A stretch of 64,000 nt of DNA from Octopus vulgaris (lineage: Eukaryota), in NCBI GenBank assembly GCA_951406725.2, contig OX597827.1, positions 59,396,001 to 59,460,000 on the forward strand, read 5' to 3'. The translations under genes were made by a program, and so were the position numbers. Positions within the stretch are counted from its first letter, which is position 1. The number at the start of each line of letters is the position of its first letter. The notes beneath the pieces were generated by a model. The model searched no databases, had not been told where the DNA came from, and saw only the letters and a program-made list of their open reading frames with translations. Positions 2,945 to 62,200 of this stretch are shown one piece after another.

Positions 2945-3518
2945 AGGTGCAGTTGCGGCTGAGTGGTTAAGAAATCTGCTTCTTGACCACATGGTTTTAG
3001 GTTCAATCCCACTGTTTGGTATCTTGGATAGGTACTTTCTACTGGAGCGATGGGCAGGCCAAAGACTTGTGGATGGATTTGGTAGATGGAAACTTTCGTG
3101 GGCAATGTCATGTAAAAGCGCTCGAGTGGTACCACCTAAAAGCGCTCGCACGGTTCCGCAAAAGCGCTTGTGCGATGTCACGTAAAAGTACCCGTGTTGC
3201 GCCTCGTAAACGCGCCCAGTGGTGTCACGCTAAAGCACCGATACAGCGTCACGTAAAAGCGCCCGTGTGCTTCCATGTAAAAATGCTTGTGTGGTGACAT
3301 GTAAAGCAGCCGTGCGGTGCCACGTAAAAACATCCAGCTTACTCTGTAAAATGGTTGGCGTTAGGAAGAGCATCCAGCTGTAGAAACCTTGCCAAATCAG
3401 ACTGGAGTCTGGTGCAGCTTTCCAGCTAACCAACTGTGGCTACACCGTCCAACCAATGCCAACATGGATAATGGATGTTAAATGACGATGATGAAAATGA
3501 TGATGATGATGATGATGA

Positions 3519-3520
<2 letters not shown>
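2945..3520 (+). mobile_element. SINE family B-like head with internal minisatellite and (GAT)n tail
   Basis: tRNA-like head, ~10 CACGTAAAAGCRC units, then GGTTGGCGTTAGGAAGAGCATCCAG segment. Confidence 0.7.
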
Positions 3521-3589
<69 letters not shown>

Positions 3590-3876
3590 TATTTCGTTTT
3601 TGTATTTGGTTTGCAAGATTCTTTATGTGAATTCGTGTTTTGAACGAGGAGGGCATCCTGCAGTAGAAACATCTATCTTAACAGGCGCATGCAACCATGG
3701 AAAAGTGGACGTTAAATGATGATGCCAATGATGGTGAGATGACGATGACGATGATGACGATGACGATAATTGATGATGATGATAACGACGACGACGATGA
3801 TGTTGATGATGATGATGATGACGACGACGATGATGACATACACACGCATCTTTATAAATATTCATAAGATACTCAC

Positions 3877-3948
3877 AGTAAATTGAGATTCCCAAGATCA
3901 ACAAAGGTGTCTTCTCGAATGCAATTTATTTTATTAGCATTGAGTAAT
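3877..3948 (-). CDS. slit: Slit, 72-nt LRR exon (D2)
   Basis: ttcacag|ATTACTC...TTACT|gtgagt; LLNANKINCIREDTFVDLGNLNLL (diagnostic LLNANKI motif). Confidence 0.97.
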
Positions 3949-4438
3949 CTGTGAAGAGATGGATAGAAAAAGGGGAAAAAAAAAGAAAAGAAAAGAAAAG
4001 AGAGATGACGCTTATTTGTGATTAAACATAAAAAAATAAATTTTGCTGGCATCAGTGTTTTTTATTATATATACATTGATTGGCCATCAATATTTTTGAT
4101 CGATTGAAACATTGAAACACAGCATATGATAATCTCTGTCACTCTTTCAGTTTCTCCTCCTCCTCCTCCTCCTCCTCCCCTTCCTCCCTTGGATGACATT
4201 ATCTCTATGTTCTGAAGAAATATGTAGACACGCTTGCTGTCATTATATCATGCAGACATATACAGACTACATACATACGTATAAATTTGTGTGTGTGTGG
4301 GTGGGTGCGTCCTATTTTATTGGATGTGGCCTTGATGGTGAACTGCTATTTATAATATATATATAAACATGCTTACACACACTTACACTCACACACATAT
4401 ATATATATATATATATATACATACATACATACATATAT

Positions 4439-4469
<31 letters not shown>

Positions 4470-5804
4470 CATACACACACATATATATATATATACATAT
4501 ACATATTTATATATATACTTATATATACATATATACAAAGTGACTCAAGGCTTAAGAGTTCTGTGCAAGCAACTGTTCAAACATTTGGTGAAGAACCCCA
4601 GTTCTTGAATCACTTTCAAGTTTCTATTGATCAATAACAATAATAATTGTTTCAAAACCTGGTATGCGGTCACCAATTTTAGTGAGGTGAGAAAGTTAGT
4701 TAGAGTGACCCTATTGTTCAACTTGTACCTATTTTATCCGTCCCAAAAGAATGAAAGGCAAAGTTGTACAGATTGGAAAGAACTAACTCAATACATGAAA
4801 ATGTCCGTATGTTTATTTGGAACAAGAAAGGAAACAGGGTAAACCTTCAAAGCATACACTTATAAGTATTTGTATATGCAATATAATACTTTCTAATTTT
4901 ACACAAGAGCGGCAATTTTAATGGGAGGTGATTGTTCATTAGGTAGACACCCCAAGTACTTGACTGGTGCTTTATTTTATCAATTATGAAAAAAAAAAGA
5001 GCTCCTTTCTGAGTCATGCAGACTCATAGGGCGTATGAGTTATATAGACTCGTAGAGCCGGTTTCCTGGTATCTGTGGTGCATATACTCCCCACTGAATG
5101 GGACATCGATCCGTTGCAGGATTATTCATATTCGAAAGCTGAGTAGACGGGAGCAACGAGAAATGGAGTGTTTTGCTCAAGAACATAATGTGTTGCCCAG
5201 TTTAGGAACCGAAACCACAATCTTACGACAACGAGTCAAACATCCTAGGCATTAAGCCACACACCTCCACTTTCATTCTGAAAGGATGAAAGGTAAAGTC
5301 GACCCAGAAGCATTTGAACTCAGAACATGAACGCATTACCCGCTCCAGGAATCGAAACTATAATCTTCCGATCTTGAGTCCAAACACGAAGTAACGTACC
5401 TTCATTTCATTCCGAAAGGATGAAAGGTAAAGCTGACTTCAGTAGTATCTGAACTCAGCCCGCGAACGCAGCGCCTGCTCCAGGAATAGAAACCATAATC
5501 TTACTTTCATTAGTCTAACATCCTAACCACTAAGTCACGCAACCCCACTTTCATTCTGAAAGTATGAAAGATAAAGTTGACCTCAGTGGAATTTGAACAC
5601 GGAACCTGAAGAGCCGGAATAAATGCTCCAAAGCATTTTGTCTAACGCAGTGTATGTGTGTGTATGGTGAAGGATTTGAGGAAATGAAGAGGACAGAGAT
5701 CTGAATGAGTAAAATTCACTTACCTGATTGAGACTACCTCTCCTCCTGTTTTGCATGGAACCCTCTGACTCTATTAGCCAAAACTATCGTTCTCTCGTCC
5801 TATT

Positions 5805-16674: not shown

Positions 16675-16855
16675 TCTTATTATTGTAGTTTAACCTCAGG
16701 TTATCTCTGGTCGAACAGTCATATGCTCAAAGGCATTCCAGCCGTGATTATCATGACTGGGACTGGATTCTATGTGCAGGTTTCTCGAAACTTTATAAGA
16801 TGGTATGTGTGTATATACATTTATATATACACATATATACTTATGCAAACACACA

Positions 16856-16919
<64 letters not shown>

Positions 16920-17359
16920 GGCACATACATGGTGTGCGGCTATTAAGGTGGCTTTCGCAATTTACAACCGAAAGGCAACAAGTATAGTCGTCACGAAAGT
17001 GACGGAAGCTGCTAGTGAGCACCGGCATTGCTAGAAACAAGAGTCAAAACAACCCTTGGCCACGTGAGAGCACTTTTCTAACGACCAACAAGGGAGGCAA
17101 GCTCTCTCCCTACGACAAGCGAGATGGAGTCATATGAGCGCTGATTTCAGATTTGATTAATCTTCACCAGTGACCCATTACACCGTCGCCGAGGGTTAAA
17201 GAACTTAATTCCTTCTGTCAGCATAGGCTGATTTTCGAAACTGATGAAGTGAGAATTATAAATGATCAAGATAGCTGTTTGCAATGTACAACCGAAAGGC
17301 AACAAGTGTAGTCGTCACTAAAGTGACGGAGGGTTCTAGAGAGCACCGGCATTGCAGAG

Positions 17360-17423
<64 letters not shown>

Positions 17424-28077: not shown

Positions 28078-28241
28078 CAGCACATTTGAAATCCTTCGCT
28101 TGTAGCACTTCTATGGCCTGATTCCTGAGAATCATGGGTTCATAGCATTTGGTAAAAAGTCCCAGTCGAGGGTTCTTTCTCAACCATATTGCCAACCAGC
28201 TGAGATGACAGTCGCACACCAAGTTATTGTCACCGATACGT
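28078..28241 (-). CDS. slit: Slit, 164-nt exon, LRRCT cap of D1
   Basis: tttag|ACGTATC...TGCTG|gtaaga; RIGDNNLVCDCHLSWLAIWLRKNPRLGLFTKCYEPMILRNQAIEVLQAKDFKCA; phase 2-1. Confidence 0.97.
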
Positions 28242-45720: not shown

Positions 45721-47546
45721 CGTTCCCTCCAACGGCGCGCTGACATTATCATCAAACCGGCTGACAAGGGTGGAGCTGTAGTGGTGTGGCGCGCGGACCT
45801 CTATAGGGCCGAGGCTTTCCGCCAACTCAATGACACCTCCTTCTATTCCCCTCTGCCCTCTAACCCCACACGTAGCTACCAACAGACGGTATCCTCTACT
45901 GTCCAAGACCTCATCTCGTCCTCCCGTCTCCCCCGCACCGCATCCAACCTAATTGTGCGAACCCCACGTACCCCCACCATTTACTTCCTCCCCAAAATCC
46001 ACAAACCCAACAACCCTGGCCGCCCCATCGTCTCCGCCTGTAACTGCCCCACGGAGCTCATCTCTAAATACCTCGACCGTGTCCTTGCCCCCCTAGTGGC
46101 ATCTCTTCCCTCCCACATCCACGATACCAACCATGCTCTCCGGCTTTTCAACTCTTTCTCCTTTCCTCCCGGCTCCTCCAAAATCCTTTTTACTATGGAC
46201 ATCCAAAGCCTCTATACTGTTATCCCTCACCACGAAGGACTGCAGGCCCTTCGACACTTTCTTGACCTCCGCTCTAACCCTGTACCTGACACCTCCACAC
46301 TCATTCGTCTGGCCGAACTTGTCCTTACTCTGAACTGCTTCTTGTTCGCGGGCGAGTTCTACCATCAGGTCTCGGGAGTGGCTATGGGAACGCGAATGGG
46401 CCCCAACTATGCGAACCTGTTCGTTGGCTATGTTGAGGCCCAAATATTCTCTAATTTCACTGGTCCCACTCCTGAACTATATGGTCGTTATATTGACGAC
46501 ATTATCGGTGCCACCTCACTCTCCCGCGAACATCTAGATTCCTTCCTCTCTTTCGTCCAATCTTTCCATCCAGCCCTCCACTTCACTTCCACTATCTCCA
46601 ACACCTCTGTCTCCTTCCTCGACATTTCGGTTAGCATTCTTCACTCCACTCTTACCACCTCCATTCACTACAAACACACAGACTCACACTCATACCTCAA
46701 CTTCTCTTCCTCCCACCCAGAACACACCAAGCTTTCCATCCCCTATTCCCAATTCCTCCGTCTACGTAGGCTCTGTAGTGACGACCATGACTTTGAGACT
46801 CAGTCTCAACGTATGGCTCACCACTTCACCCTACGTGGATACCCCCTCACCACTATCCACACCGCCCTTGCCAGAGCACGGTCCGTGGACCGTGTATCTG
46901 CTCTCTCTCCCCGAACCCGCCCTGTAGTCTCCCGCCTCCCTTTTCCCCTCACTTACCACCCCACGACCCTACGTCTCCAACGCACCATTCTTCGAGCTTT
47001 CCGTCATCTCCAGTCCGACCCGTCCACTTCACACCTCTTCCCTAACCGACCCCTCCCCTCTTTCAAACGAGCCCACAACCTTCGAGACCTTTTGGTCCAT
47101 AGCTCCTTCCCCGACCCTACCTCCCAACCCGGCTCGTTCCCCTGCTCCCGCCCACGTTGCCGCACTTGCCCTTACCTCTCCAACACCACCCGCCTCACTA
47201 GCACCCACCATCGACCCTATCCCATCATCCACTCCTTCACCTGCACCTCCAGCAATATTATCTATTGCATCTCTTGCTCTCTCTGCAATTCCTTGTACAT
47301 CGGACAAACGGGACGCCGCTTGGCTGACCGGTTCGCGGAACACCTTCGTGACATCCACCTTGCGAACGACACACCGGTCTCACGCCATTTCCGCTCCACC
47401 GGTCACTCCTTGCAACACCTATCTGTGTTCGGTTTGTCCTTACACAGAGGCCATCCGGATTCCCGTTTGCGCCGTGAACAGGAATTAATCTTCTCTCTTC
47501 GCTCTTATACGCCATTTGGTCTCAACTCTCCCCCCTCCTCATCTAA
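45721..47546 (+). CDS. PLE polyprotein: reverse transcriptase + GIY-YIG endonuclease (partial, no start codon)
   Basis: Motifs IKPADKGG, YFLPKIHK, RPIVS, MDIQSLYT, GVAMG, RYIDD, FLDI, YLNFSSSHP, linker CSRPRCRTC, NIIYCISCSLC..LYIGQTGRRLADRFAEH, PFGLN; no internal stop. The listed ORF 45568-47904 adds artefactual ends. Confidence 0.93.
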
Positions 47547-47840
47547 CCCCCTCTCCCCCCTCCTCACCTATCCTTTCTCCCCCGACCCCTACTTCTTCAG
47601 TCCTTCATCCTTTCACCCCTACTCCCCTTCCCTTCTTCCCTCTTTCTCCCTCCCTCTTCCCCTTCCCTCTGCTCCCTCACTCCCTCTCTCCCTTCTCTCT
47701 CCCCCTCTCCCTCTTTCCTCCTTCATCCCCCTCCTCACCTTCCTTCTCCCTCATCGTCTCCTCTTCCCTCTTCTCCTCCCCCTCTTCTTCCCCTTCCCTT
47801 CTCTCCCCCCTCTTCTCCCCCTCCCCCTCTTCTCCTCACT
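47547..47840 (+). repeat. Polypyrimidine (CT-rich) low-complexity tract in PLE 3' region
   Basis: Almost only C/T on the + strand. Confidence 0.9.
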
Positions 47841-47880
47841 ACACCACATGACTTTACACATCACATCACATATGATGTGC

Positions 47881-48215
47881 CATACTAATACACACACCAA
47901 CTAATACATACTAATACGTACTAATACATACTAGTACATACTAATACTTACACCAACCCTATACATACACACGTCCAGACCCCGCATACGCACTTATACT
48001 CTCTCACACACACACACACACATCTATACATACCAATACGTACTAATACATACTAATACATACTAATACATACACCAACCCCATACATACGCACGTCCAG
48101 ACCAATCTTACGCACTAATACTCTCTCATACACACACACACACACACACCCTTATACATACTAATACATACACCAACCCTATACATACACACATCCAGAC
48201 CCCTCCCACGCACTT
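47881..48215 (+). repeat. About three ~110-120-bp tandem units with nested CATACTAATA subrepeats in PLE 3' region
   Basis: CACCAACCCYATACATACRCACRTCCAGACC recurs at ~47951, ~48073 and ~48171. Confidence 0.85.
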
Positions 48216-48385
48216 TTAGCTGGTCCCTCAACCCTTTTATCAACCCTATTATCTCCCCTTATTTCGCTCTCGCGTCTCATGTTTGATCTTTGACCTCTGG
48301 CCGAAATCAGATCGCCATGTTGATTCGTTAGCTACTGCACGCATTTTTTTCTCTCCTTCTTTCTGTGTTTTTCTCTCTCTGTGTA

Positions 48386-48423
48386 TCTTTCTGTTGAAGA
48401 GCGTAGGCTCGAAACGTTAAAGA
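48386..48423 (+). ncRNA. Minimal type I hammerhead ribozyme motif at PLE 3' end (core CUGUUGA)
   Basis: UCUUU-CUGUUGA-A-GAGC(GUAG)GCUC-GAAA-CG-UU-AAAGA: stems I and II pair; palindromic ACGU stem III. Confidence 0.7.
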
Positions 48424-48520
48424 CTTGTTTTATTTATATTTCCTGAGCGCCATACTAATACAATTGTTCGTTTGTTTTCCACCTGCCTTCGTCTTTTGTT
48501 TATTTTCATAAAGCTTCCCG

Positions 48521-48576
<56 letters not shown>

Positions 48577-61019: not shown

Positions 61020-62200
61020 CTATTTAGCGGTCAGAGTGAACGGTTATCTCTCAGAACCGTTCAACATCATGCACTCAGTCCGGCATGGTTGCCTCTTCTC
61101 GCCTCTCTTGTATGTACTGACTCTTGAGCCACAACTACACAAACTAGAGATGTTGAGGGGCATCCCGCATGACCTAGGATGTGGGAGATGTCATGTAGTG
61201 GTGTCGGATAATAAACACATAGAAATGATCGGCATCGCTCTCAAGGACTACAAGGCGGTGTCAGGAACCAGGAAAATTTAGTGGGTTTGCGGCTCGGCAC
61301 CTGGAAAAACAAGTCCATGCCATCAAACTTATTCGTTGAGCGCCGGACGGACGGATCGGTTAAATTGCTCAATGCCTGGTTTCGTCCGGACCTCCAGATG
61401 AATAAAAACTGGGATGAGGTAATAACCAGGGTGACTACTCTCACCCAGAAAGGGGCCGAGAGGAAGCTATCCCTGAAAGGTCGGGCAGAGGTGGTTAACG
61501 CGTACATCGGTGTGGTCGCCGTTCGCCAGACGCGTATTTCCCCAGCTGGTTTCTTTAATGGAGCTGCAGTCCTGGGTCAAACAGAGACCTAGAGAAGGTA
61601 TTTGGAAAGTGGAATATCTTCAAGCGCTCACAGCTCCCAGCCAGTTGGATACTGCGATAGGTGGAACGTCCAATTTAGATTTCTATAGAGGATTAGTGAA
61701 GGGAAAGTACAAGGATGTTCTTGGGGATACCTTGGGTGTCGAAGATCAGTTAGCAGTACTTTTGCAGAAAACTTTCAGCCGGGGACCAATGCATAACTTC
61801 CAAAAATCTCTGGCCTGGCAGTACTGCCGGGGAGCTTTGCCTGTTCGAAATAAACTATACTGGCACGGAAGTGCCGTCAGCCGAGAATGTCTGAGATGCG
61901 CGCAGGACGACGAGACGGTCCAGCATGTACTCGTCCAGTGCCCGAACATTGCTGACCTGTGGGTTTATGTCAAACACCTGCTGTTGCTTGTAGGACGGAT
62001 CCGTCTGTCAACTGGGTCCATCGTGAAGATCGTCCCGCCGCCTTCCTTTAACCCGGAAGAGCAGGCTGTCTTTATATGCCTGGTGGAAATGCCGAAAGAG
62101 ATTGTATGGTGGACGAGGTTAAAGGGGCTGAGAGCAAACACGTTCTCTTTGGCCAATCCCTGATCAACTTCTTCAAGTTTCACTTGTAACGGAAAATAAG
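61020..62200 (+). mobile_element. Degenerate L1/Tx1-clade LINE ORF2 fragment (RT C-terminal part + zf-RVT)
   Basis: VNGYLSEPF..SVRHGCLFSPLLYVLTLEP; RKLSLKGRAEVVNAYI; AWQYCRGALPVRNKL..CLRCAQDDETVQHVLVQC; frameshifts and internal deletions. Confidence 0.85.

Follow-up and report, generated by a model that had tools for sequence, protein, structure and literature searches.

A likely retrozyme copy with a damaged minus-strand hammerhead in the genome of Octopus vulgaris

Between two microsatellites of the Octopus vulgaris genome lies a structured RNA motif of 75 nt that occurs twice at a period of 324 nt, and the question it raises is whether the motif is itself a ribozyme or a piece of something larger. 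The locus was analysed within a stretch of 64,000 nt of microsatellite-rich animal DNA, referred to here as the window. A first-pass annotation of the same letters proposed a retrozyme-like, non-autonomous, non-coding element whose unit measures about 324 nt, and took the 75-mer for a plus-strand four-way junction that might be a new ribozyme. The class of element proved right. Nothing we found points to a new ribozyme; the unit does contain a known class, the type I hammerhead, which lies in the spacer between the two copies and reads on the minus strand. The insertion is likely a copy of a metazoan non-LTR retrozyme whose hammerhead is damaged at this locus; a Penelope-like reverse transcriptase probably inserted it.

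Alignment confirmed the two direct copies (7 differences in 75 nt, 324 nt from start to start) as well as the (CA)n tract to the left of the insertion and the (TA)n tract to its right, and a third copy is absent from the 64-kb window. The insertion is non-coding, measures 421 nt and amounts to about 1.3 rounds of the unit (Table 1), which has a GC content of 44% and a longest stop-free stretch of 55 codons. Gapped alignment extends the overlap of the two rounds to 96–98 nt (16942-17037 against 17265-17362); the duplicated piece exceeds the motif at both sides, and the motif is not its boundary. The 75-mer is thus present twice because the insertion spans 1.3 units, and not because a ribozyme stands at each unit end. 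At its left junction the window copy lacks the (TA)n that other copies show, and no target-site duplication is visible.

Contigs from four public runs, aligned to the stretch at 80% likeness, reveal a dispersed family. In the two DNA runs 714 contigs (run X4, organism B) and 632 contigs (run X2, organism A) match, figures that count contigs and not copies. These contigs cover 29 of 30 bins of the stretch, spacer included; the spacer, first described as unique, therefore belongs to the family as much as the motif does. The stretch was found, whole or in part, in 9 of the 24 runs listed, from three organisms (A, B and C) when small shares are counted, two of them being present at small shares, and no RNA run is among the nine. 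Family letters were counted per site, not per molecule, among 40 listed variant rows out of 447, and the pieces listed numbered 32 out of about 1,480. Among those 32 pieces no single contig spans a full dimer. One diverged contig (X4 record 23, 17071-17324; 40 other letters, 11 gaps) repeats the junction from spacer to motif, and joints lead from 17179 and from 17203 back to 16954 in one contig per DNA run each, the letters between not being known. Together, record 23 and these joints support a repeating unit elsewhere in the family. Two further runs, presumed to be RNA, gave 9 and 11 matching contigs, of which those listed are diverged family pieces, some within longer contigs (depth up to 131); four listed pieces lie near the window letters, at depth 2–4, with 0, 0, 2 and 4 other letters. 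No back-joined contig of unit length occurs among the pieces listed from these two runs, which we read neither for nor against circles.

Two majority family letters in the spacer suggested a minus-strand hammerhead. When the window letters were scanned on both strands with a descriptor, a type I motif was placed there (Table 1). No site with a perfect core occurs on either strand of the 64,000 nt, and when one core mismatch is allowed there is a single site, inside the unit, with its core starting at 17170. Dinucleotide shuffling of the element gave no match to the descriptor in 2000 trials; the thresholds of the descriptor were chosen after the site had been seen. A published descriptor, in excerpts of PMC8557442, has the core halves CUGANGA and GAAA separated by 7–17 nt; the separation in the window hammerhead is 15 nt. 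The GAAA half and the NUH triplet (AUA) stand at the correct spacing, and helices I, II and III have 6, 5 and 3 bp, helix I being open-ended and helix III being complete only when 17136 carries the family letter. Helix II opens with an A-U pair (17163/17149) in place of the conserved G10.1-C11.1, a pair that is usual and not obligatory. The window copy fails the canonical core, with G at position 6. Core position 6 is required for hammerhead cleavage.

Table 1. Features of the insertion and its borders (window coordinates).
Feature	Position	Strand	Basis
Likely retrozyme copy, whole insertion, about 1.3 rounds of the 324-nt unit	16942..17362	-	Sequence, family contigs, gapped alignment
(CA)n microsatellite, about 28 nt from the left end of the insertion	16850..16913	.	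Sequence
(TA)n microsatellite abutting the right end of the insertion	17362..17422	.	Sequence
75-nt motif copy 1, with its three hairpins and 5-bp closing stem	16957..17031	-	Alignment, folding
75-nt motif copy 2, same part of the unit, second round	17281..17355	-	Alignment
Larger branched domain containing the motif	16948..17063	-	Folding
Segment closing the 324-nt period; first half atypical for the family	17209..17256	-	Contig depth 55–145 at 17216-17230; 16 contigs per DNA run depart at 17208
Long, irregular rod; hammerhead at the tip	17083..17223	-	Folding
Type I hammerhead motif, degenerate in the window copy	17127..17176	-	Descriptor scan
Helix I 5′ strand, pairing over 6 bp with 17132-17127 (one G-U)	17171..17176	-	Descriptor scan, folding
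Core CUGANGA; G at core position 6 (17167), family mostly canonical A	17164..17170	-	Scan, family depth
Helix II, 5 bp, 5-nt loop; basal pair A-U, not the usual G-C	17149..17163	-	Descriptor scan
GAAA half of the core	17145..17148	-	Descriptor scan
Helix III region; 12-nt palindrome in the family (monomer: 3 bp and 4-nt loop), broken at 17136 in the window copy	17134..17145	-	Family depth, self-duplex energy
Predicted cleavage site 17133/17132, after the AUA triplet (17135-17133)	17132..17133	-	Position in fold
Helix I 3′ strand	17127..17132	-	Descriptor scan

The family mostly has what the window copy lacks. At 17167 the canonical A of core position 6 accounts for 95% of depth (74 contigs) in X4 and 93% (62 contigs) in X2, and at 17136 the canonical letter of helix III accounts for 97% (79 contigs) and 95% (73 contigs); one X2 contig differs at core position 7, the free position. 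The family core was judged at position 6 only, among the 40 of 447 variant rows listed, and these shares describe sites and not intact hammerheads read on single contigs. The hammerhead was overlooked at first because the window copy has two changes that the family mostly lacks. Against the Rfam hammerhead families, the type I model being presumably RF00163, the window letters, which alone were queried, gave no match up to E 10, even as a 76-nt query. Judged from its letters, a window copy with one broken hammerhead cannot release a monomer. Li et al. 2026 call a locus 'active' when it has two consecutive intact hammerheads, and the window copy has one, broken, in 1.3 units.

Folding predictions place the hammerhead in a structured minus-strand RNA and outline how its cleavage might depend on a tandem partner. 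With window letters the rod reaches -51.9 kcal/mol on the minus strand (z -3.8) and -34.7 on the plus strand (z -1.3; 60 shuffles). The self-duplex of the 12-nt palindrome is predicted at -19.5 kcal/mol with family letters and at -9.5 in the window copy. In ViennaRNA the monomer favours a blocked fold at -13.1, the active fold being at -6.0 and helix III having a probability of 0.00; in the blocked fold the core is predicted to pair with the 5′ half of the palindrome. The double-hammerhead fold is at -31.5 versus -29.0 for two monomers with family letters, and at -18.7 versus -27.8 with window letters. The best predicted dimer (-37.7) still buries the core and lies 6 kcal/mol below the active dimer, and the model is therefore no proof of dimer activation. 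Excerpts of PMC4209133 describe most metazoan hammerheads as cleaving only as dimers, with the circle spared, and excerpts of PMC7229834 report likewise dimer-only cleavage for axolotl retrozymes. Folded whole as a circle, the unit goes from z -1.7 to z -2.7 on the plus strand and from -1.2 to -4.0 on the minus strand when window letters are replaced by family letters. These family-letter folds use the majority letters at 23 places among the rows listed, one of them a majority in X4 only. Within the unit, 10 of 21 majority places are paired in the minus-strand fold, a count that is not a covariation test; changes that keep a wobble pair, tallied by hand as a test of strand, number 5 against 2 and are too few to use.

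What, then, is the 75-nt motif? The first-pass annotation had given it a plus-strand consensus of four helices. The three hairpin cores and a closing stem of 5 bp stand, whichever strand is read; 88% and 81% of family depth in the two DNA runs lacks the sixth closing pair. Neither copy has the full four-way fold as its minimum free energy structure, and single copies show modest folding (plus-strand z -1.85 and -2.32, minus-strand z -1.12 and -1.02). The proposed consensus turns out to be a mosaic of pair-keeping letters. At the hairpin-2 loop TAAA makes up 90% and 96% of family depth, GAAA being the minority allele, and in 86% and 91% of depth an arm-1 pair on which the four-way fold depends is C-A on the plus strand and U-G on the minus strand. 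The claim that GNRA loops set the plus strand comes down to one minority-allele loop and one hairpin of 2 bp. The larger domain around the motif shifts from z -1.25 and -1.85 (plus and minus strand) with window letters to -4.2 and -3.6 with family-majority letters, and by these folding models it is a real folded part of the family RNA.

A self-cleaving ribozyme of a new kind, formed by the plus-strand four-way junction and marking each monomer end, would draw on this well-folded domain, which scores on both strands, and on a CC-GAAA-GG hairpin whose A/C-rich internal loop is identical in both copies. It would also draw on the lack of Rfam matches: as had been claimed, the 75-mer matches no known ribozyme, with no Rfam family at gathering score, only miRNA matches driven by the microsatellite and weak snoRNA matches, and nothing in the 75-mer up to E 10 for the twister, twister-sister, pistol, hatchet, hairpin and HDV-like models. 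We nevertheless regard this reading as highly improbable. The unit already has a ribozyme of known class on the other strand, the 96–98-nt overlap runs past the motif on both sides, and the second GNRA loop and two of the pairs are minority alleles. The viral, prokaryote and metagenome scans also returned no homologue outside the lineage: the viral scans gave 0, 9 and 0 loci and the metagenome scans 0 and 0, and among prokaryote genomes 39 loci have the arm-1 pattern and none has more of the motif. We attribute all 48 loci to chance or to a bacterial gene leader, the 9 viral ones all to chance. The 75-mer is more naturally part of the folded body of the element RNA, next to the priming site, and not a catalyst, a view that we hold as likely with the explanation as a whole.

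The bacterial leader concerns the Brucella sRNA BSnc140 (RF02623), which resembles arm 1 over about 22 letters (16 bits, E 3.8). This likeness was rejected as chance, since in Brucella and Ochrobactrum the letters are a ribosome-binding site and start codon, with the rest of the motif absent. The gene behind them is, we assume, that of ribosomal protein L21. As an observation on its own, the 3′ end of BSnc140 coincides with the ribosome-binding site and the start of this recognised L21 gene (18 listed loci, around 801), so that this 'sRNA' may be the leader of an mRNA.

An ordinary SINE, MITE or TRIM fragment would make the hammerhead shape accidental or a dead relic and the 75-mers short LTRs or a local duplication. 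The second copy starts with TG and ends with CA within a 7-bp inverted repeat, and a high copy number suits any mobile repeat. The piece at 17021-17065 may be common to a far more abundant repeat or subfamily, the summed contig depth being 36,000–60,000 at 17021-17050 and 3,000–5,500 in the motif. TG..CA is, however, the only LTR hallmark seen and occurs in copy 2 only: reading by eye found neither a primer-binding TGG nor a polypurine tract beside the copies on either strand, and family contigs cross both ends of the 75-mer. A tRNA-like gene is missing as well, with 0 hits in ARAGORN and no Rfam tRNA match, searches that a strongly decayed head would escape. Core and palindrome letters are retained in 93–97% of family depth, and the fold arose by chance in 0 of 2000 shuffles. 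These points make such a fragment very unlikely. A piggyBac- or Kolobok-type MITE, with TTAA-adjacent ends, was also considered and rejected: the family lacks terminal inverted repeats at its ends, and its layout is accounted for by the hammerhead.

The retrozyme assignment places the octopus unit among elements whose dimensions it shares. Excerpts of PMC7229834 (Cervera and de la Pena 2020) describe metazoan retrozymes as low-GC repeats of 150–450 bp, the non-LTR retrozymes measuring 220–245 nt in coral, 350–390 nt in mussel and 330/350 nt in axolotl. Like them, the octopus unit is a few hundred nucleotides long with GC below 50%, one type I hammerhead per unit, no coding frame and no LTR, primer-binding site or polypurine tract; it has many copies and a self-paired fold, and Penelope-like elements co-exist with it. 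A short palindromic helix III is shared with the axolotl retrozymes, and the microsatellite flanks and more-than-unit length of the window copy also fit the metazoan non-LTR type. With the dimer-dependent metazoan type I hammerhead of PMC4209133, as excerpted, the octopus motif has in common the core, GAAA, NUH, the 6-bp helix I and a short palindromic-loop helix III. The differences are that the window copy has only 1.3 units, a single hammerhead that fails at core position 6 and goes unmatched in Rfam, and a helix II that starts with A-U in place of G10.1-C11.1. The octopus palindrome is 12 nt long and its 5′ half can pair with the core in a predicted self-block, whereas in the parts of PMC7229834 consulted free hammerheads are predicted in most animal circles, some mussel ones excepted. 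The retrozymes of that study come with circles and cleavage, while the octopus unit is known from sequence and predicted folds.

The surroundings of the insertion offer both a host gene and a possible partner. Three Slit-like coding pieces occur on the minus strand, near 28216, 21903 and 1780, the first matching solved Slit domains (E 4e-5); the element therefore lies in an intron, on the strand of the gene, and the hammerhead of the window copy is on the Slit-like pre-mRNA strand, which might have favoured its two disabling changes. A 5′-truncated EN+ Penelope-like element occupies 45721-48521 on the plus strand (RVT_1 E 1e-7, a 607-codon open frame), with (TA)n on both sides; it contains a reverse transcriptase, a cysteine-rich linker of Neptune/Nematis type and, by eye, GIY-YIG, and elements of its type are candidate partners of the retrozyme. 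Near its 3′ end a minimal hammerhead-like motif (48386-48423, plus strand) has a helix I of 5 bp, U at core position 6, an extra A, a helix II of 4 bp, GAAA, and a palindromic 6-mer replacing helix III. Elsewhere in the window, broken frames at 61215-62163 on the minus strand resemble by eye the C-terminal part of a LINE reverse transcriptase.

The Penelope connection also gives rise to a rival that we consider unlikely, in which the window copy is a 5′-truncated partial tandem of a hammerhead-bearing pseudo-LTR, the unit being the 3′ end of a Penelope-like element that is autonomous; the hammerhead would then process a long RNA, with no independent 324-nt circle. Pseudo-LTRs of EN+ Penelope-like elements of Neptune type (PMC4209133 and PMC8557442 in excerpts; retrozyme link in 10.64898/2026.07.22.740005, likewise) resemble the octopus unit in their hammerhead near the end, truncated partial tandems, microsatellite targets and lack of a clear target-site duplication. 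Penelope inserts are microsatellite-prone, 5′-truncated partial tandems with inverted pieces (10.1101/2021.04.23.441226 and PMC8557442, as excerpted), and family depth here declines toward the right of the unit. Single contigs of both DNA runs have strand-switch joints (17004/17134, 17036/17326, 17105/17142 and 17157/17200) that resemble such inverted truncated pieces; one of them falls within 2 nt of the predicted cut. At 17208 most copies part from the window sequence, 16 contigs per DNA run running on in letters unlike it that may lead back to the motif or into a Penelope body. According to excerpts of the 2026 preprint 10.64898/2026.07.22.740005, many Xenopus retrozymes match pseudo-LTRs and the two are argued to be one lineage, and cleavage was seen in only 1 of 9 dimers tested. 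By eye, however, the first loose letters past 17208 restore an 11-bp helix with 17083-17093, and those letters are therefore a variant of the same segment; the diverged contig and several joints return from spacer to motif; and the hammerhead, with 6 bp in helix I and 3 bp in helix III, is of canonical size where animal Penelope-like elements typically have minimal forms (PMC4209133, excerpts). No Penelope coding sequence was seen attached to the unit, and the unit does not resemble the 3′ part of the Penelope element in the window (scores 20 and 17, against shuffle means of 19 and 21).

Under the retrozyme explanation, intact tandem source copies would be transcribed on the minus strand, and neighbouring hammerheads would pair through the 12-nt palindrome in what is the known double-hammerhead mode. 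Cleavage after AUA would yield monomers of about 324 nt that a host ligase would close. A Penelope-type endonuclease and reverse transcriptase would then nick a (TA)n tract and prime at an A/U-rich site in the RNA, about 190 nt downstream of the cut, the cDNA running from left to right on the plus strand and across the cut site; that place is where 27 and 22 contigs of the two DNA runs have the left family end, in (TA)n-like letters. The reverse transcriptase would have re-read about 98 nt into a second round, leaving the two 'motifs'. A linear monomer would end the cDNA at 17132, yet the window copy crosses the predicted cut, so that the template would be a circle or an uncut multimer; many listed family contigs also cross this site. 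A circle or multimer as the retrozyme template is proposed in the discussion of PMC7229834, as excerpted.

No cephalopod retrozyme is described in the literature searched. The main text of PMC7229834, in the parts consulted, does not name cephalopods as covered, and its supplement, which lay outside the search, may list examples; excerpts of PMC6962438 count 235 hammerhead-1 loci in the giant squid genome without describing the elements. A more ambitious interpretation, which we put forward as speculative and on balance doubtful, is that the octopus family is the first in cephalopods and shows how such elements move: most copies would start at one A/U-rich site beside the conserved branched domain of the 75-nt motif, this domain would be the cis-signal that recruits a Penelope reverse transcriptase and endonuclease at (TA)n, and the 12-nt palindrome would switch the hammerhead on in tandem transcripts and lock it in the circle.

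The locus itself is a dead copy. Its analysis removes a false lead toward a new ribozyme class and probably adds an octopus family to the animal retrozymes. Reverse transcription of retrozymes is still only proposed, with Penelope as the partner (discussion of PMC7229834 and 10.64898/2026.07.22.740005, both in excerpts). The common insertion end, the copies longer than a unit and a Penelope element in the same (TA)n targets would make the family a usable test system for the priming site and for the role of the folded domain.
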